A DNA stretch of 64,000 nucleotides from Candidatus Eiseniibacteriota bacterium (lineage in GTDB: Bacteria; Eisenbacteria; RBG-16-71-46): assembly GCA_031364845.1 (NCBI GenBank), contig JANLWX010000065.1, forward strand, positions 39,665-103,664, read 5' to 3'. Below, piece by piece: positions 36,609 through 47,971 of this stretch (position 1 is the stretch's first letter; each line of letters begins with the position of its first letter). The notes beneath the pieces were generated by a model. It ran no database searches. It was not told the DNA's origin and saw nothing but the letters and a program-made list of their open reading frames with translations. The position numbers and the translations under genes were made by a program.

Positions 36609-39449
36609 TTACACCCGGAACACCTTCATCACCTCATCGCCGAGGTGGTTGATCACTTTGACCGCGATGCGTCCGGACTTGGGCTTGGGGAACGCCCGCG
36701 ACGTATCGCTGTGCAGCGTGGCCCAGGCGTCAGCGTCGATCTCCGCCTTGAGCGTGGTCTTGAGCGATCCGTACGGATCGTTGGCGCCGAGGAAGTAGGC
36801 GTGGCGCACGAAGAAGCTCTCTTCGTTGTAGTCGGTGTCGATGAACCAGCACGCGATGCCGTCCGGTCCGTCGCTGCGGACTTCGCCCGTGTTCGGGTGA
36901 AACACGTCCACGCCGTTCACCTTGACCCTCACGCGGTCGTCCTCGGCGGGGAGGAGGCTGATGTCGGGTTCCCCGAAGATGACGAACAGGTTGCCCTTGC
37001 CCGTGTTCTTGAGGTCCTCCGACATGTGGAGGTCGGCGTTCATGCGCGCTTTGAGCACCGGAATGCGTCCGAGTTTGCTGAACTCGGTGGCGTGAGCTTC
37101 GTAGTTGAAGGCACAGGCGATCAGCACATCGAAGTCGGCGTCGCCGGCTTCACGGGCGGCAGCGACCAGATCGGGACGGGTGACCGTTCCGAACTCGGGG
37201 CCGATGAAGATCGCTGCGCGCTTCTCGGTACCGGATTCCTCGCTGCCCTCCATGTACCGACCTTCGGCGCAGACCAGTTCGCCGGGCCATGGGCTTAGAG
37301 CGGTGAAGCTGATCCGATCTTCCTTGTGCGCCTGCTGCACGCCGGCGGCCTTCAGATTCTCGAGGATCATCTGCGGGAAGGTTTGCTTGGCTGCGTAGTC
37401 GGTGGAGCCATCGGTGACCCGATCGATCAGTTCGTCATTCTCGTCCACTCCGAGTACGCGATGCGGCGACAGGCTCTCGACCGTGAATGGGCCCGCGACG
37501 CGGACCTTCTTGCTGTCAGTGTAGGGCTTGTCGAAGAGGTTCTCGTATTCCGCCTTCGCGGCGATGGACGCGTCGATTTCCTTCTGGCGTGCGATGCGCG
37601 CCTGCCACCAGTCGGCGTGGAGCTTCTTCGCGGCGTCGGGCCACTTGGGATCGGTCTCGCGCGGGAGTTCCCACTCCTGCCACGTCTGCTTGAGAGCGGT
37701 GTTGAGTTGCTCGCGAATCGGTTCGAGCGTTGCCTGCCACTTCTCCCAGATGACGTCGATCTCTGCGTTGTTGGCGATGGACTTGAGCGTGATGTGCGGC
37801 ACGCGCTCGTATACGAAGCCCTGACGAATGTTGCCGCGGGCTGGCTGTGATGAGGGCATGGAGCCGGTGACATCTGCCTCTTTGAGCTGGCCTTCGCGCG
37901 AGTCGGCGAGCAGGTAGTACGGATAGCGGGCGCCCATGACCCTTGCGCGAGCGAGCGCGAGCGCAACGCGCGAGGTGTCAATGGTAATCCAGCGGCGCCC
38001 CCACTGCTCGGCGACGGTGCAGGACGTGCCTGAGCCGCAGGTCGGATCGAGCACAAGGTCGCCGGGGTCCGTGGCCATCAGGAGGCAGCGCTGAACAACC
38101 TTTGAACTAGTCTGGACTACATAAACTTTCTCCTCGGCGCGACTGCTCAACAAGACGTCATCCCAAGAATTGCCAATTGGAGTAACCGAGAAGTCGTCAA
38201 AAAACCGTACATAGGAGAGTTGCTTGCCACGCGGTTCAAGTCGACCAGCTCTTAGCAGCTTTCCCATTCCGGCAATCGTGGTCTTCCAATGGGAGCTTGC
38301 GTTCGGTTGATATGAAGCGCCGAAGGCATGGAAAGGAACAGACAGGCTTTCGGAATACCCTGTCGAGATAATGTTGTCTTGCCGATAAAAGCGGGCGATT
38401 GTGAGGTTGTCCGTGTCAGCTCCCGCTTCATCGTTTGTCGAGAGAGAGCGGCGTGTCCCGTCAGGAAGTTCAATGCGTTTGTATTCACTCTTGCCTCCAA
38501 ACTCCTTGACTCGCATTGGCTGGCGATACTTAACTCTCGAAAGATCTCTCGCATACCATATGACATAATCGAAGAGGTCGCCGATCACGTTGGTTTTCGC
38601 TTCCGGGCTACTCACTGCGGATGTCTTGATGAAGGCCATCTGCGCGGCAAAATTCGCATCCCCAAACACCTCATCCATCACCGCCCGGACGCGGTGGACA
38701 TTTTCATCGCCGATCTGCACGAAGATGGAGCCGGACTCGGTGAGGAGATCGCGGGCGACGGTGAGCCGATCCCGTAGGTAGGTGAGGTAGCTGTGGATGC
38801 CGTCGCGCCAAGTGTCCCGAAACGCCTTCACCTGCTCCGGCTCCCGCGTGATGTGCCCCGCGTTGCCGTCCTTCACGTCGCGACTCGTCGTGCTCCACTG
38901 GAAATTGCTGTTGAACTTGATCCCGTAAGGTGGATCGAAGTAGATGCACTGAACCTTACCGCGTAGCCCTTCGCGCTCCGCAAGACTCGCCATCACCTGA
39001 AGCGAGTCGCCGAGGATCATGCGGTTCGACCAGTTCTGGTCGTGCTGGTAGAACTCGGTCTTGTCCACACCGCTCGGGATGCCGTTGAAGTCGGCGAACA
39101 AATCGGCCGCAATCTCGCCGGCGGCATGCTGACTCTCTCGGGTTTGTCGCAGCAGATCATCGATCAGCGCCTTGGGATGGACCTTCTCCTGGATATAGAG
39201 CGGCGGAGCGTGAACGACGAGGTCGCTCCAGTCCTGCACGTCCTTGCCACGCCACACGAGCTGCGGGTCGAGATCGCGATTGCGCCGCTCGTAAGCGACG
39301 CGTATTGGATCCTGCGCCTGCTTCTCGAGCACCGACTGGTATTCCGCGGTCGGAATGTTCTTCCGTGTCGCTTCGTCGTGACGCAGCGCCTCGACACTCT
39401 TCTGGCTCACCGTCTTCGGCGCCTTCGCAGTCTTCGTCGTCTTCGCCAT
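36609..39449 (-). CDS. Type III-like site-specific adenine DNA methyltransferase (Mod)
   Basis: 'NRMILGDSL', 'YFDPPYG' (DPPY), then TRD, then 'VLDPTCGSGT' (beta-class order). 946 aa. Confidence 0.92.
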   Translation of the reverse strand: MAKTTKTAKAPKTVSQKSVEALRHDEATRKNIPTAEYQSVLEKQAQDPIRVAYERRNRDLDPQLVWRGKDVQDWSDLVVHAPPLYIQEKVHPKALIDDLLRQTRESQHAAGEIAADLFADFNGIPSGVDKTEFYQHDQNWSNRMILGDSLQVMASLAEREGLRGKVQCIYFDPPYGIKFNSNFQWSTTSRDVKDGNAGHITREPEQVKAFRDTWRDGIHSYLTYLRDRLTVARDLLTESGSIFVQIGDENVHRVRAVMDEVFGDANFAAQMAFIKTSAVSSPEAKTNVIGDLFDYVIWYARDLSRVKYRQPMRVKEFGGKSEYKRIELPDGTRRSLSTNDEAGADTDNLTIARFYRQDNIISTGYSESLSVPFHAFGASYQPNASSHWKTTIAGMGKLLRAGRLEPRGKQLSYVRFFDDFSVTPIGNSWDDVLLSSRAEEKVYVVQTSSKVVQRCLLMATDPGDLVLDPTCGSGTSCTVAEQWGRRWITIDTSRVALALARARVMGARYPYYLLADSREGQLKEADVTGSMPSSQPARGNIRQGFVYERVPHITLKSIANNAEIDVIWEKWQATLEPIREQLNTALKQTWQEWELPRETDPKWPDAAKKLHADWWQARIARQKEIDASIAAKAEYENLFDKPYTDSKKVRVAGPFTVESLSPHRVLGVDENDELIDRVTDGSTDYAAKQTFPQMILENLKAAGVQQAHKEDRISFTALSPWPGELVCAEGRYMEGSEESGTEKRAAIFIGPEFGTVTRPDLVAAAREAGDADFDVLIACAFNYEAHATEFSKLGRIPVLKARMNADLHMSEDLKNTGKGNLFVIFGEPDISLLPAEDDRVRVKVNGVDVFHPNTGEVRSDGPDGIACWFIDTDYNEESFFVRHAYFLGANDPYGSLKTTLKAEIDADAWATLHSDTSRAFPKPKSGRIAVKVINHLGDEVMKVFRV

Positions 39450-39451
39450 AC

Positions 39452-42400
39452 TCAGCTCCGAATTCCCGTGGGTGGTGCGATTGCCTGTTCGATCATGGCG
39501 TCGAACGTGCCCGCGACCTTTGCCGCGAACTCGGACTCGATCTGATACACCTCGGTGAACTCGGCGAACGACCACCGGCCCAGCGTGCCGAGGTGATTGA
39601 CAGCCGGAATCCAATAAGTGTCCATCGTCGCCTTCTTCTCCTTGGCGTCTTCCCGGCGGTAGCCCTTGATCTCGACCACCAAATGCAGCAGGTCTTCCGC
39701 GCCATGCCCGTCGTCGACCAGCACCACAAAGTCGGGGATGTAGCGGCGCATCTCGGAGCCGTATCGGTACGGCACTTCGAGTCCGAGATTGTGATTCTTC
39801 ACGTACGCCTTCACGCGGGGGTGTGCCTCTGCCACCCGGCAGAACTCGCCTTCCCAGTCGCTGTCGAGCACCACCCAGTTCACGTGGCACCGCGCGGGAT
39901 CCGTCTGCCAGCGGTCGGCCCGCGACGTGTTGAAGCGGACGTGAGCTGTGGAGCCGATCGGGTTGTAGGAGTCGAGCACCGCCTTGATCGGACGTTCGTC
40001 CGCAAACGCCGCGGTGATCCCCGCGGTGATGCGGTTGCACGCCATGTCGGCGAGTTCCTGGTACATCATGAGGAGCGCGGGGTACGTGCCGCCACGGCAT
40101 TCAAGATGGTGTTCGAGCCACTCTCTTGTGATGCGCTTGAGCTGGCCAAACAGGTGAAGCTTGGGCGCCTCACTACCGTCGCGCCACTTGGTATACAGCA
40201 GGCGATGCGTGAGATGGAAGAGAAGGGTGGACGGGCGGACTTCGGCCAGATGCGCGAGGTCGAGATTGGCTGACTCCCCGATGAGTCCAGCGTTCAAGAC
40301 CTTTGAGGGTCCAACGACTTCTGGCGTGAGCACCAGTGTCGAGTCGTCGTTGAACTTGGCCGTCAGTCGCTCCTCGGGAAGCTCCACGCGGTAACCCGCG
40401 ACGCGGGGAAAACTAATCTCGAGTGCGTCGCGGTCTGGACGCACAGCCCTCACCTGAACCGTTTCACGTGGCGGTTGCGCGGGGGCCACGACCGGCTTTG
40501 CGGTGAAGTCGAATGGGATGCCGAAGACGTCGGCGTACTCGACATCGAAGAGGTTGTCCTCGTTGAGGTCGTACGACAGCCGCCGCAACGCTCGCCCGAT
40601 GACCTGTTCGCACAGGAGCTGGGTGCCGAAGGCGCGCACACCGAGCACGTGGGTCACGGTGTTGGCATCCCAGCCTTCGGTGAGCATGGAAACCGACACG
40701 ACACAGCGGATGGAGCCACCGAGCCGGTCCAGTTTTCCGACCGTGTTCATCGCTTCCCGGAGCAATTCTTTGTCGGTGATCGTGTCCGCTGCGTGACGAT
40801 CGCCGGTGCGAGTGATGACCTCGCTTCTGAATTGAGCGATCTCCGCAGCCGCCATGGCCCGGAAATTTTCGTCGAGTGCATCGTCAGATTCGAGCTGTGT
40901 GCTGTCGATGAGCAAGGTGTTGGGGCGCGCGAGGGGGTTGCCATGCTCATCGAAGTTGCGGAAGAGTTCGAGGCGGCCGTTTTCGAGCATCATCGAGCCA
41001 TCCTGACTCTCTCGCTGAAAGCCCGAGACGTACTCGTAGACGAGTTTGGACGTCGACGTGTTGTTGCAGACGACGATGAAGCACGGCGGCACACGAATGC
41101 CGGCATCCTGCCAAAGCTTGAACGTCTTCTCGTAGTGTCCGTAGAGCGCCGAAAGGGCTGTCAGTAATCGTACGGGAAGGTCCAGCGGGTTGAGTTCGCC
41201 CGCCTTGCCGCGTCCCTTCTTCGGCATGTCCTTGCGAATGTTCTCCCACAGATTGCGGAACATCGGCATCTCTTCGCCTGGGATGTTCTCGGCGACCGGG
41301 ACGCGTGGCAGCTTCACGATTCCGGACTCGATTGCGTCCATCAGGGAGAAGTCGCTCATCGTCCAAGGGAACAGGGTGCCCTCGGCGTACCCCGAGCCGC
41401 TCAGGAAGAACGGAGTCGCCGACAAGTCGATGACCCGCGCACCGAGTTGGCGCTTCACGATCTCGAGCCCGGAAATCCAAAGGCGGGCCGCCTCGTTGTT
41501 CTTCTCGGCTTCCTTGCGCTCGTCGCCCTTGAGCGCCTCTTCGTCTTCTTCAGGCGGCTTTTCGCGGTAGCAATGATGGGCTTCGTCGTTCAGCACGAGG
41601 ATGTTCTTCATCCCCATCAGCTCGGGCATGACTCGCTGAAGCATCTGCCCTTCGGTTTCGAGCGTGTTCAGTTCGTCGCCAACGCGGCCTTGGAGCAGCG
41701 CGCGGCCTCCCTTCGAAATTTCGATCCGTTCACGAAGCTTGAATGCATGGAAGTTCGTGATGACGATCTTCGCGCGGTTCACTTCGTCGAGCATGTCGGA
41801 GGGGATCAGTTCCCGATGGACGAAGTAGCTCTCGGGATCGTTAGGCTGGAGCACACGCAGCCGATCCTTGATGGTCAGCCCCGGCGTCACGACCAGGAAT
41901 CCCCGCGTGAATCTCTTGCTCTGCGGGTGTCGGACGGCATTGATCGTCTGCCACGCAATGAGCATCGCCATGACCGTGGTCTTGCCGGCACCCGTCGCCA
42001 GCTTGAGCGCCAGGCGCATCAACTCCGGGTTGGCGTCGCGATTGGCGTTGACGAGATGGGCGAGGAACTCATCGCCGGCCTTACCGGCATGCGGGGCAAC
42101 CTCAGTCAGCCAGATCGCGGTTTCGACAGCCTCGACCTGACAGAAAAACGGACGAATGCTGGCGAAGTCGTGATGCCGCCAGTGCTGCAACAGCCGCGCG
42201 GTCTCGGGCGTGACGTGCCAGTCGCTCGGGTTCGGCAGCATTCGCCACCGATCCACCTGCTGGCGCACCGCGTTGATGATCGCGGTGTGATCGTACTGCT
42301 GCTTTTCAGTGGAGAGCCCTTTGCCCTCGTCGAACACGATCGACGATTGCTCCGCCTTTCCCTTTCTCTTCCGCGGCTTCGGTACTGGGGAGACGAATTC

Positions 42401-42544
42401 GGCCCGTCTGCGCTTGTCGAGAATTTGGCCAGTAGGCTGGCCGTGCTCGTCCAATTCCCAGTGCCGCGACGGATAGCCGTAGGGCTCGTTGAGAACGGGC
42501 TTTTCGAAGAACGGGTCGGATGTGGGGCGGGATCCGTCGGCCAT
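39452..42544 (-). CDS. Type III-like restriction endonuclease / SF2 helicase (Res)
   Basis: 'KLATGAGKT', 'DEAHH', 'SATP', 'LTEGWD', 'EQVIGRALRR', C-terminal nuclease 'YIPDF...VEIKG'. Confidence 0.92.
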   Translation of the reverse strand: MADGSRPTSDPFFEKPVLNEPYGYPSRHWELDEHGQPTGQILDKRRRAEFVSPVPKPRKRKGKAEQSSIVFDEGKGLSTEKQQYDHTAIINAVRQQVDRWRMLPNPSDWHVTPETARLLQHWRHHDFASIRPFFCQVEAVETAIWLTEVAPHAGKAGDEFLAHLVNANRDANPELMRLALKLATGAGKTTVMAMLIAWQTINAVRHPQSKRFTRGFLVVTPGLTIKDRLRVLQPNDPESYFVHRELIPSDMLDEVNRAKIVITNFHAFKLRERIEISKGGRALLQGRVGDELNTLETEGQMLQRVMPELMGMKNILVLNDEAHHCYREKPPEEDEEALKGDERKEAEKNNEAARLWISGLEIVKRQLGARVIDLSATPFFLSGSGYAEGTLFPWTMSDFSLMDAIESGIVKLPRVPVAENIPGEEMPMFRNLWENIRKDMPKKGRGKAGELNPLDLPVRLLTALSALYGHYEKTFKLWQDAGIRVPPCFIVVCNNTSTSKLVYEYVSGFQRESQDGSMMLENGRLELFRNFDEHGNPLARPNTLLIDSTQLESDDALDENFRAMAAAEIAQFRSEVITRTGDRHAADTITDKELLREAMNTVGKLDRLGGSIRCVVSVSMLTEGWDANTVTHVLGVRAFGTQLLCEQVIGRALRRLSYDLNEDNLFDVEYADVFGIPFDFTAKPVVAPAQPPRETVQVRAVRPDRDALEISFPRVAGYRVELPEERLTAKFNDDSTLVLTPEVVGPSKVLNAGLIGESANLDLAHLAEVRPSTLLFHLTHRLLYTKWRDGSEAPKLHLFGQLKRITREWLEHHLECRGGTYPALLMMYQELADMACNRITAGITAAFADERPIKAVLDSYNPIGSTAHVRFNTSRADRWQTDPARCHVNWVVLDSDWEGEFCRVAEAHPRVKAYVKNHNLGLEVPYRYGSEMRRYIPDFVVLVDDGHGAEDLLHLVVEIKGYRREDAKEKKATMDTYWIPAVNHLGTLGRWSFAEFTEVYQIESEFAAKVAGTFDAMIEQAIAPPTGIRS

Positions 42545-45726: not shown

Positions 45727-47021
45727 GCGCGCGCATCGGAGTGTTCGCGCTCGCGTGCGGCGCCGCGCTGGCGCTCGCGGCCGCGCCCACGGCGGCCGAA
45801 ACGGTGGCACTCGTCGGTGGCACCGTCCATCCGGTGAATGCTCCCGACATCGCGAACGGCTCCGTCGTGCTGCGCGACGGAATGATCGAAGCGGTCGGCG
45901 CGGGGCTCGCCGCGCCCGCGGGCGCGCGCGTCGTCTCGTGCGCGGGCAAGCATGTCTATCCCGGTCTGATCTCCGCGAACACGGTGCTGGGCCTCACCGA
46001 GATCGGCAGTGTGCGCGGCACCCACGACGACACGGAGATCGGCGTGGTCAACCCGAACATCCGCACCGAAGTGCAGGTGAATCCCGAGAGCGAGCTGATT
46101 CCGGTCGCGCGCATGGGCGGGATCACAAGTGCGCTCGTCATGCCGCGCGGTGGAACCATCGCCGGCACGCCGGCATTGATGCACCTCGACGGCTGGACGT
46201 ACGAAGACATGACCGTGCGCGCGCCGGTGGCGTTGTTCATCCAATGGCCGGGGATGACGGCGACCACGGACGATCAAAAGAAGACACGCGACCGCGCGGT
46301 CGCCGGTATCCGCGATGTGTTCGAGGAGGCGCGCGCGTACCTCGGAGCGAAAGCCGCCGAAGGCAGCACGGGTGTGCCGCGCCACGATGGCGACATGAAG
46401 TGGGATGCGATGGGCCGGGCGCTGCGCGGCGAGATCCCGGTGATGTTCCGCGCCGCGGGCCTCAATCAACTGCGCGCAGTGCTCGCGTTCGTCGACGAGA
46501 TGAAACTCGAGCGCGTCATCCTGCTCGACGGCTGGGACGCGTGGCAGATTCCGAACGAGATCCGCGCGCGCAACATCTCGGTGATCACGAGCGGATCGCT
46601 CTCCGCGCCCGCCCGGCGCAGCGAGCCCTATGACACACGCTACGCGCTGCCCGGACGTCTGTTCGCCGCGGGGATTCCATTCTGCATCGCCGATCCCGGG
46701 GGACGTGGCGATGCGATGAACACGCGCAATCTCTCGCAGCATGCGGCAATGGCGGCGGCGTTCGGACTTCCGCGCGAAGAGGCGTTGAAGGCGGTGACGC
46801 TCTATCCGGCGCAGATCCTCGGTGTGGCGGACAAGCTCGGGACGATCGAGCCCGGCAAGAACGCAGACCTGATCGTGACCGACGGCGACCCGCTCGAGAT
46901 CACGACTCACGTGGAGCAGGTGTGGATCGCCGGGCGTTCCATTCCGATGGAGAGCAGGCAGACGCGCTTGTTCCAGAAGTACGATGGGAAGCCGCGCGGG
47001 GCGAACGCGCGGGCGCGATAG
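45723..47021 (+). CDS. Secreted amidohydrolase-family protein (likely non-catalytic partner)
   Basis: GTGA overlap and signal peptide. 'YPGLISANT' lacks HxH. 'GTIEPGKNADL'. Confidence 0.82.
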   Translation: MSARIGVFALACGAALALAAAPTAAETVALVGGTVHPVNAPDIANGSVVLRDGMIEAVGAGLAAPAGARVVSCAGKHVYPGLISANTVLGLTEIGSVRGTHDDTEIGVVNPNIRTEVQVNPESELIPVARMGGITSALVMPRGGTIAGTPALMHLDGWTYEDMTVRAPVALFIQWPGMTATTDDQKKTRDRAVAGIRDVFEEARAYLGAKAAEGSTGVPRHDGDMKWDAMGRALRGEIPVMFRAAGLNQLRAVLAFVDEMKLERVILLDGWDAWQIPNEIRARNISVITSGSLSAPARRSEPYDTRYALPGRLFAAGIPFCIADPGGRGDAMNTRNLSQHAAMAAAFGLPREEALKAVTLYPAQILGVADKLGTIEPGKNADLIVTDGDPLEITTHVEQVWIAGRSIPMESRQTRLFQKYDGKPRGANARAR

Positions 47022-47042
47022 AGATTCTTCGCCCGCTCCCAA

Positions 47043-47078
47043 ACGCAACGGCGCGGGCATGAAGCCCGCGCCGTGCGT
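47043..47078. terminator. GC-rich hairpin between convergent genes
   Basis: ACGGCGCGGGC-ATGAA-GCCCGCGCCGT, a perfect 11-bp stem (47048-47074). Confidence 0.65.
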
Positions 47079-47119: not shown

Positions 47120-47278
47120 TCAGCCGCCGATCTCACACGAGGTCGCGCAGCTTCCGCTGCACGCGCCGCAGCACCCCGGGGGACAGTTGTCCGCCGCATT
47201 CTGCGTGTCACCCGCGAGGGCGAGTGAGCCGAGCGACAGCAATCCGAACAGCAACGAGACCATCATGGTGCGCTTCAT
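47120..47278 (-). CDS. 52-aa secreted Cys-rich peptide
   Basis: AGGAG SD. MKRTMMVSLLFGLLSLGSLALA|GDTQNAADNCPPGCCGACSGSCATSCEIGG has a signal peptide and 6 Cys in a 30-aa mature part. Confidence 0.8.
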   Translation of the reverse strand: MKRTMMVSLLFGLLSLGSLALAGDTQNAADNCPPGCCGACSGSCATSCEIGG

Positions 47279-47368
47279 GTCGTGAACTCCTGTTTCGTGT
47301 GAACGATGGACCCCGCGGCATCGAAGCCGCGCCGGGTGTTCAGCAACGAGGTGCGAGTTCACATGAAG
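47273..47368 (-). promoter_or_regulatory. Anti-SD / start-codon-sequestering hairpin (candidate translational attenuator)
   Basis: On the mRNA, CUUCAUGUGAACUC (47368-47355) pairs with GAGUUC-acg-ACAUGAAG (47289-47273), covering part of the SD and the AUG of the peptide gene. Confidence 0.7.
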
Positions 47369-47855
47369 GCGGGGCACGGCCCAGCGGGGGCGCGTGGGGC
47401 GCGAGCAGCACCGGCGATTGGAAGACGGTCGTGATCGCGCGCGGCGCCGAGGCGGCGGGCGGCGGAACGACGAGCGGTGGAACGAGTGTCGCGAGCGCGG
47501 GCAGCGCGGCCGGGGGATCGATGTGAAGCGTTGACACCACGAGCGCGTCGACCGGAGGATGCACGCACCATGCGCGATCGCCGAACGGAAGCGGATCGGG
47601 ACTCGGATCGCAGGGCAGCGGACACGTAGCCGTTTTCTGCGTCGCGCAGGCGCCGCCGGAGTTCGTACCCGACATCATGCGCGCGCAGACAGGATCGCAC
47701 GCAGCGCCGGATTCGCAGGTGGTCGATTCGGTCGTGGCGCCCGCGACGAAGTCGGCCCACGAGAACGGGCACCATTCGACCGACGGGAGCGCCGTCCACA
47801 GCGCAAGAACGAGGGCGAGCGGCGCAACGCGCCGGGGGAGCCGACGAAGCATCAT
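47340..47855 (-). CDS. DUF2946/CutF/CruR-like leader protein with C-terminal RAPP arrest motif
   Basis: 171 aa: N-terminal basic/hydrophobic export signal, 10 Cys (two CxxxC), Pro-rich linker, 'APPLGRAPPS' near the C-terminus. Confidence 0.75.
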   Translation of the reverse strand: MMLRRLPRRVAPLALVLALWTALPSVEWCPFSWADFVAGATTESTTCESGAACDPVCARMMSGTNSGGACATQKTATCPLPCDPSPDPLPFGDRAWCVHPPVDALVVSTLHIDPPAALPALATLVPPLVVPPPAASAPRAITTVFQSPVLLAPHAPPLGRAPPSCELAPRC

Positions 47856-47971
47856 GCCGGGATTGTCGGCCCGACGTACTTGTGGACGTGTTCGGGAGCG
47901 GCAAAATATCGCGACCGCCCGGATTTCGTACCGGCCGCGAATGATGCGACACCTCACCAGGGCGGACCTCA

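Follow-up and report, generated by a model that had tools for sequence, protein, structure and literature searches.

The closest described counterparts of the locus reported here are CutF, encoded upstream of cutO in Rhodobacter capsulatus, and CruR (Bp2923; DUF2946/PF11162) of Bordetella pertussis. CutF is the Sec-exported, cysteine-bearing product of an upstream open reading frame (ORF) with a proline-rich stall motif at its C terminus, and a stem-loop hides the following gene's Shine-Dalgarno (SD) sequence (10.1101/2022.11.11.516240; 10.1101/2025.02.05.636593); in the model proposed for it the first and last cysteines form a disulfide, and copper, by blocking this closure, prolongs the stall (10.1101/2025.02.05.636593). 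CruR is likewise the product of a small upstream ORF, with an export signal and a CxxC that lies 45 residues (within 1-2) before a C-terminal RAPP, and it acts through Rho-dependent termination on a TonB receptor gene (PMC9426467). The ~45-residue spacing found in CruR and CutF places the motif in the SecY vestibule (10.1101/2022.11.11.516240; PMC9426467). Other RAPP/RGPP peptides (ApdA, ApdP and a Streptomyces lividans set) are also small secretory proteins with a C-terminal motif and a same-strand gene downstream (PMC10951233; PMC12992588); seven of the seven tested Streptomyces RAPP/RGPP proteins, as well as CruR, arrest in vitro, and the target classes comprise sec genes, TonB receptors, YcnI, PCu(A)C, PepSY, DsbA/thioredoxin and sigma factors (PMC12992588). 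Here we describe a two-gene unit in a 64,000-nucleotide (nt) stretch of DNA (the window) from a Candidatus Eiseniibacteriota bacterium (assembly GCA_031364845.1, here G000; contig JANLWX010000065.1, positions 39,665 to 103,664), in which an exported, cysteine-rich leader with a C-terminal RAPP precedes the gene for a tiny cysteine-rich peptide and which very likely operates as a stall-and-stem switch.

The leader has 171 amino acids (aa) and 10 cysteines, and its RAPP (residues 160-163) is followed by 8 residues to the C terminus; the next gene encodes a 52-aa peptide with 6 cysteines behind a clear SD. Translation bore out both ORFs as an initial annotation of this DNA had given them, and the export signal that it ascribed to the leader stands as a prediction, read by eye from a hydrophobic N terminus and matched by a helix in the AlphaFold model (Table 1). 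Among 66 aligned leaders C57 is invariant and W28, C29, C70 and C97 are each present in at least 90%, so that the family keeps a Trp-Cys directly behind its hydrophobic segment, a final aromatic-Cys and Arg-x-Pro-Pro. The 67 relatives shorter than 300 aa carry RAPP (58) or RGPP (8), the remaining one being a fragment. The most regular feature lies between the last cysteine and the motif: the distance to the Arg of RAPP/RGPP is 58-64 residues in 61 of the 65 relatives in which it is measurable, and 63 in the window. By comparison, the span from first to last cysteine is variable (mostly 42-113 aa), the leaders range from 135 to 200 aa (most relatives 150-200 aa) with 6-12 cysteines, and the cysteine count of the domain is odd in 38 of 63 counted. 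The last 69 codons of the leader are under purifying selection, non-synonymous divergence (pN) being lower than synonymous divergence (pS) in 7/7 close pairs. The first and last cysteines of the domain, C29 and C97, sit in the sole two predicted β-strands, 25-32 and 94-99 (AlphaFold, predicted template modelling score (pTM) 0.33). Scans of 66 members against Pfam and NCBIfam gave no convincing family match and a Foldseek search of the PDB no structural match; in the ESM Atlas the leader falls near unnamed clusters (0.95; two matches with DUF6769 on 33% of members) and the peptide at no more than 0.82, which we treat as leads only.

The peptide is conserved with the leader. Wherever the DNA beyond the leader is readable (29 of 29 cassettes), the gene that follows encodes a product of 43-117 aa with a signal-peptide-like start and 3-7 cysteines, six in 22 of them, and the products fall into two size classes, a short one to which the window peptide belongs and a longer one with two three-Cys clusters; in a set of 13 peptide relatives five have 7 cysteines. 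The window peptide consists of signal-peptide-like residues 1-22 and a 30-aa acidic core, C-x3-CC-x2-C-x3-C-x3-C, with its 6 cysteines within 17 residues and with neither His nor aromatic residues. It too is under purifying selection (pN < pS in 7/7 close pairs; pN 0.052 and pS 0.393 between the window and its close homologue L041), and 17 peptides gave no Pfam or NCBIfam family at the cut-off. A weak match of three of these 17 to 'Cys-Xaa-Xaa-Xaa radical SAM target' (E 0.02) was taken as compositional. A short Cys-Pro-x-Pro-Cys pattern also occurs both in the Cys domain of the leader and in several homologues' peptides; the sensor looks as if it carried a copy of its product's binding motif.

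The family was delimited by successive searches. A single-leader query found matches in 6 of 60 relatives (one spurious), and a profile built from 66 leaders found them in G000 and in 25 of 88 genomes of the same Eisenbacteria family, although one of these 25, G003, carries no true homologue. The profile had no match in 117 genomes of 17 other families, an absence that applies to those genomes, which as metagenome assemblies are incomplete; a search of 1.84 billion representatives returned 69 matches, 67 of them shorter than 300 aa. The 29 distinct cassettes analysed (24 from genomes, 5 from metagenome contigs) were counted after removal of duplicates (L038-L040, L043), a near-duplicate (L045), leader pieces at contig ends (L024, L025, L027) and spurious loci (L002, L012, L033, L034, L073, L097-L099). 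A reverse search with a peptide profile returned mostly the same loci, three unrelated matches, and L096 and L100, which have RAPP or RGPP upstream and, having been found later, stand outside the 29-cassette statistics. One genome, G032, has a second copy of the cassette (L013, on G032:C14) whose RAPP, stem and peptide are intact but whose leader runs in two separate frames; this is either a decayed paralogue or a sequencing error.

The RNA between the two genes is predicted to fold as the initial annotation had proposed. In the minimum free energy (MFE) structure of positions 47400-47260, a 14-nt arm pairs with 47289-47273 (spacer, AUG and some of the SD), leaving a 3-nt bulge and enclosing the inner GC hairpin. 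The SD and start bases have unpaired probabilities of ~0.00-0.01, except for the G that opens the SD (0.94) and the A of the start codon (0.22). On its own the fold stands out only modestly from chance (z -2.19; 7 of 200 shuffles were as stable); the weight of the evidence comes from the homologues. The peptide start in the window lies 100 nt after the Arg codon of RAPP and 61 nt after the leader stop. Across the 29 cassettes the distance from Arg codon to peptide start is 89-111 nt with a standard deviation of 6.3 nt, whereas the leader stop falls 18-66 nt after the Arg codon and the gap from stop to start is 21-90 nt with a standard deviation of 14.6 nt; from this difference in spread we conclude that the distance of the start is set from the stall site and not from the stop. 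The 33 nt that follow the Arg codon form a duplex of -14.4 kcal/mol with the ribosome binding site (RBS) of their own cassette and of -11.4 kcal/mol with non-cognate ones, a value as low not being reached in any of 100,000 permutations, and this cognate advantage appears only in segments that start 0 or +12 nt from the Arg (-1.9 and -2.3), the largest among 14 other segments being -0.85.

To model a stalled ribosome, the nucleotides that it would cover when its P site holds the first Pro, as in ApdA/ApdP and CruR, were blocked. With this block in place the RBS becomes cheaper to open by more than 1 kcal/mol in 20 of 29 cassettes and costlier in one; in the window the opening cost falls from 12.6 to 5.3 kcal/mol. 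Blocking only the upstream part has no consistent effect (7/29, Wilcoxon p 0.34). Shuffling the arm lowers the opening cost in 26 of 29 cassettes, in the window from 12.6 to a mean of 6.1 kcal/mol, and none of 15 shuffles reaches the observed value. In L041 a U-A pair stands in the anti-SD stem where the window has G-C, and all three consensus pairs of the inner hairpin change on both sides in some of 13 aligned cassettes. Comparison among the homologues shows the spacing rules, the anatomy and its conservation, and the match between arm and RBS; the unit is real and conserved, and it is probably a functional arrest-peptide switch. The leader stop is an invariant TGA (29/29 cassettes) that often pairs with bases before the peptide start; selenocysteine insertion or a read-through fusion at this codon was ruled out because the Arg-to-start distance takes all three frames. 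The peptide genes themselves end in TGA (13), TAG (12) or TAA (3), one being cut off.

Table 1. Positions of the elements of the two-gene unit in the window, and of other candidate RAPP/RGPP leaders in the same genome (contig handles given)
Feature	Position	Strand	Basis
Promoter-like motif, upstream box, 17 nt before second box	47888..47893	-	seen by eye in upstream sequences
Promoter-like motif, downstream box, ends 6 nt before leader start	47862..47870	-	seen by eye in upstream sequences
Leader ORF, 171 aa, 10 Cys, exported Cys-rich candidate arrest peptide	47340..47855	-	ORF translation and homologues
N-terminal export signal (predicted), residues 1-23, basic then hydrophobic	47787..47855	-	sequence reading, hydrophobic block kept in alignments, AlphaFold helix 8-22
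Cys-rich sensor domain (putative), C29 to C97, 8 Cys	47565..47771	-	alignment of 66 sequences
Pro-rich linker ('ruler'), last conserved Cys to arrest motif	47379..47564	-	fixed length in relatives
RAPP arrest motif codons, residues 160-163	47367..47378	-	R160, P162, P163 invariant in 66 sequences
Anti-SD arm, begins in last Pro codon	47355..47368	-	MFE and ensemble folds
Inner GC-rich hairpin of spacer	47315..47330	-	MFE and ensemble folds
SD (47291-47287), spacer and start codon (47278-47276) of peptide gene, forming 3' arm of stem	47273..47291	-	ORF and fold
Target ORF, 52 aa, 6 Cys	47120..47278	-	translation; homologue in 29/29 cassettes
Strong 3' hairpin closing the two-gene unit	47042..47078	-	GC-rich arm recurring after peptide
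Other leader, before TolC/adaptor efflux genes, via small lipoprotein-like ORF	G000:C36 near 795	+	
Other leader, before TolC-CusA/CzcA operon	G000:C126 near 15245	-	
Other leader, before porin-like gene and ZnuA-type protein; weak DUF2946	G000:C201 near 5571	+	

Judged by these features the mechanism would work like that of CutF-cutO, although the parts differ. CutF has PPP, four cysteines and ~45 residues from the last of them to the motif, and the target of such leaders is a multicopper oxidase or a transporter operon; the Eisenbacteria leaders have a full RAPP or RGPP, more cysteines in a longer chain and a ruler of ~63 residues, and their target is a small peptide that ends the unit. Set against the rules by which CutF-like leaders were listed (10.1101/2022.11.11.516240), the window leader exceeds the length limits (<150 aa in list B, <170 aa in list A); it has PP 8 residues from the C terminus (within 15 in the rule) and a same-strand gene after 61 nt (within 1000 nt in the rule). 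Where the rules ask for an SPase I-cleaved Sec signal, the leader has a predicted hydrophobic helix at its N terminus. The SD-shielding stem-loop that a stalled ribosome would open is found in silico in the 20 of 29 cassettes already mentioned, with weak column-wise conservation. As for CxxxC, which the initial annotation had noted, the window leader has two; the pattern is absent from 22 of 67 relatives and its columns are not fixed, the family's conserved cysteines being the first and last of the domain. CruR differs too: the window leader lacks CxxC, which only 5 of 67 relatives have, the spacing is ~63 and not 45 residues, and control is apparently exerted by an anti-SD stem. The proposal that the leader belongs to DUF2946 was not upheld, since the PF11162 profile matched none of 66 aligned leaders at E<=1; a search of the G000 genome with this profile did not have the window locus among its matches, although another G000 leader matched weakly. 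Of the DUF2946 features compared, only the C-terminal RAPP was found, and by its sequence the leader is a member of the broad RAPP/RGPP upstream-ORF class, in an unnamed Eisenbacteria family whose Cys-to-RAPP ruler is longer than that of DUF2946.

As had been supposed, a tiny cysteine-rich secreted peptide is not named as the target of an arrest leader in the literature searched, which lacks most subscription papers, and the supplements of PMC12992588, as far as these were available, contain neither Eisenbacteria nor metallothionein, while the single leader motif that was looked for is absent from their RAPP list; that survey sorted its targets by annotation, and unannotated peptides would not show in it (PMC12992588). 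The peptide itself may be compared with bufferins (BufA1/DUF2282, BUF_6/12Cys), which are small, Cys-rich (six Cys in BufA2) and exported by Sec and which bind copper when it is in excess in the periplasm, but these require an MNIO (DUF692) enzyme and are under extracytoplasmic function (ECF) sigma control (PMC11626156). A modified peptide of the bufferin type was ruled out for G000, a genome 97% complete, which has no PF05114 (MNIO/DUF692) match and no modifying enzyme among the 66 flanking ORFs scanned around the cassettes. DUF2282 and BufA2 models matched none of 17 peptides, and the one leader of 66 that approached BufA2 (E 0.29) was taken as chance. In composition the peptide fits bacterial metallothioneins (SmtA/BmtA, MymT), which are very small and Cys-dense with few aromatics. 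These are cytoplasmic and transcriptionally controlled, whereas the Eisenbacteria peptide has a predicted signal peptide, no Pfam match and apparent translational control.

We infer that the family stalls, that a disulfide and a metal signal are involved, and what the polarity and the peptide's function might be. The leader would be exported co-translationally and its ribosome would stall at RAPP with the P site on the first Pro, at which point the last conserved cysteine would be ~65 residues from the peptidyl-transferase centre (PTC) and just clear of SecY. Closure of the Cys-rich domain, by pairing of the strands that bear the first and last cysteines and probably by a disulfide, would pull the chain free and so release the stall; the ribosome would then terminate and the stem re-form over the peptide's SD and start codon, leaving the switch off. 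A soft metal such as copper, bound to the thiols, would keep the domain from closing, and the stall would last; the stalled ribosome would cover the 5' arm and free the SD, and the six-Cys peptide would be made and exported to serve, unmodified, as a metallothionein-like metal sink in the periplasm. C97 would be just free to pair at the stall because it lies ~65 residues from the P-site Pro, to be compared with reach figures of ~50 extended residues to the periplasm (PMC7513700) and of ~70 residues from the PTC for the end of a periplasmic domain that pulls on an arrest peptide (10.1101/2021.02.06.430026). The ~63-residue ruler thus fits sensing by periplasmic folding, and disulfide-linked pulling depends on DsbA (PMC7513700); G000 encodes an ORF with VKOR and DsbA-type domains (below). 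A soft metal is favoured by the CutF model, by the three other leaders of G000, L106-L108, which head two efflux operons and one ZnuA-type operon, and by the lack of an even-number rule for cysteines in leader or peptide, as would be expected of thiolate ligands more than of a fixed disulfide fold.

Synthesis of the peptide is probably switched on by the leader when metal or thiol stress acts outside the cytoplasm. Our best explanation of the unit as a whole is a CutF-like ON switch for a metal-induced, metallothionein-like periplasmic sink, held tentatively and at a little short of an even chance, and we are about equally hesitant in describing the two genes as a self-contained sensor and sponge. 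That they form a minimal stand-alone metal-stress circuit, with a nascent-chain sensor, a secreted unmodified peptide and sensing fully periplasmic through a 63-residue ruler tuned to disulfide-linked folding, is possible but doubtful.

A number of observations weigh against this interpretation. The cassettes are related and not independent, and the p-values are accordingly overstated; the leader profile itself held RAPP and the spacing, and the counts for both are therefore partly selected. In nine of the 29 cassettes the modelled opening does not exceed 1 kcal/mol, leaving the freeing of the SD by a stalled ribosome, as first proposed, with modelled backing in the other 20, and a first run over a wider region gave opening in 10 of 17 cassettes. 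The expected co-conservation holds for leader and peptide (29/29) and for the motif (66/67) but not for the stem column by column: RNAalifold on 13 aligned cassettes gives no outer stem and three inner pairs only, a named 6-pair helix is 73% paired with two pairs covarying, and the register of the stem shifts between lineages. The AlphaFold model of the leader is weak at its pTM of 0.33. Free thiols in the periplasm would be oxidised unless reduced or metal-bound. Lastly, no metal gene is a conserved neighbour among the 66 flanking ORFs; the recurrent neighbours are TlpA-like thioredoxins and EttA, which point as much to thiol redox.

The alternative that survives best, though we think it somewhat unlikely, keeps the same stall-and-stem switch and takes as its signal the disulfide-forming capacity of the periplasm or thiol-reactive stress, the peptide being a small thiol/disulfide buffer or shuttle. 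Thiol redox is favoured here by the length of the ruler, which at ~65 residues matches periplasmic folding and not the 45-residue SecY-vestibule position of CutF/CruR, and by the two predicted strands, which hold the first and last cysteines. The known targets of RAPP leaders include a DsbA/thioredoxin class (PMC12992588). At three loci a TlpA-like gene lies downstream of the unit and at one upstream of it, with AhpC/TSA and DCC1-like neighbours, but all four thioredoxin-linked loci belong to one genus, and the corresponding pair in G000 is on another contig. The six cysteines of 22 of 29 peptides would make three disulfides, yet odd counts are common in both leader and peptide, and a non-catalytic peptide would be a poor means of restoring oxidative folding.

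An unlikely reading reverses the polarity in the manner of CruR, so that metal would fold the sensor and release the stall and the peptide would be made under metal scarcity as a scavenger or chaperone. Polarity cannot be told from sequence alone, copper does relieve RAPP arrest in CruR (PMC9426467), and the strength of RAPP arrest and its resistance to EF-P mean that the stalled state could be the default (PMC12992588); nevertheless none of the 29 loci links an uptake system to the unit, and a lone Cys-rich peptide fits sequestration better. We consider quite improbable a secretion monitor of the SecM/ApdP type, in which the stall would report Sec pulling force, the cysteines would be structural and the peptide would be an envelope-stress or signalling product: a signal peptide, RAPP and an anti-SD stem are the layout of a Sec monitor (10.1101/2025.02.05.636593; PMC10951233) and EttA adjoins the unit in 4 of 29 loci, but the 66 scanned neighbours include neither a sec gene nor yidC, and a pure export monitor would not need a fixed Cys-to-RAPP distance. 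Least probable, and very much so, is plain translational coupling of two co-transcribed secreted Cys-rich proteins without a signal-dependent switch, where any ribosome at the leader end would open the stem, as a terminating one would in the many homologues whose arm overlaps the leader stop codon, but where neither an R-x-P-P that is invariant though strongly avoided in proteomes (PMC12992588) nor a start distance fixed from RAPP and not from the stop would be expected.

The unit stands alone in the window, between a divergent NagX-like gene upstream and a convergent amidohydrolase gene downstream that ends at 47021, and no third conserved gene was found in the cassette flanks (66 of 77 predicted flanking ORFs scanned). 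A TlpA/ResA-like thioredoxin gene adjoins the cassette in one genus (downstream at L021, L023 and L036, upstream at L031), an AhpC/TSA-type gene follows it at L036, and a similar pair occurs on contig C110 of G000. The ettA gene, for an ABC-F translation throttle, lies within ~400 nt of the cassette at L026, L029, L052 and L067, which belong to four genera; these copies are 84-88% identical, that of G000 is on another contig (C61), and the adjacency reflects either ancestral synteny or a link to the handling of stalls. Upstream of the leader there is a two-box, promoter-like motif, whose downstream box was matched strictly by eye 6-7 nt before the start in 16 of 25 cassettes with a candidate start. 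A box that close to the start, together with the absence of an SD before the leader, suggests that the leader transcript is leaderless. The spacing of the two boxes is one that we take to be reminiscent of alternative sigma factors, and a scan of the window for sigma-70 promoters and U-tract terminators called none. Downstream of the peptide gene, 27 of 29 cassettes have the same GC-rich arm of the 3' hairpin (in one of them the fold is poor; of the exceptions, one is at a contig end and one is a variant hairpin missed by the pattern), and the hairpin is a probable transcript end or stabiliser. The sequence of its 5' arm is kept across genera beyond what pairing alone requires, perhaps as a protein site or an RNA stabiliser; a REP-type repeat was ruled out, there being 26 pattern matches in G000 where ~15 are expected by chance. 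Elsewhere on the minus strand of the window, 36609-42544 presumably encodes, to judge from the translations, a DNA methyltransferase-like protein and a type III restriction subunit-like protein.

G000 has other genes of related interest. The exported RAPP/RGPP leaders L106-L108 are unrelated by profile to the window leader; with it they make up the credible part of the six of 604 six-frame RAPP/RGPP motifs that passed a filter, the other two not being credible. One 457-aa open frame (G000:C53:19206-20318) joins VKOR and DsbA-type thioredoxin (thioredoxin_4) domains, and no DsbB was found in the G000 genome.

Our searches turned up no description of this sensor family, of its longer ruler or of the peptide as a target; the type of mechanism is already known. 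Two copper systems have provided the known arrest peptides that respond to signals from outside the cytoplasm, and the way in which a periplasmic event controls the stall is still an open question in the field. More than 60 divergent leaders with one cysteine at a fixed distance, ~18 residues longer than in DUF2946, would provide a natural test set, and they predict sensing by periplasmic folding; the unit, at less than 900 nt, could be moved whole into a laboratory strain. The unit also points to a class of secreted Cys-rich peptides that gene callers and family libraries overlook; these may correspond in the periplasm to metallothioneins and, unlike bufferins, do without a modifying enzyme.

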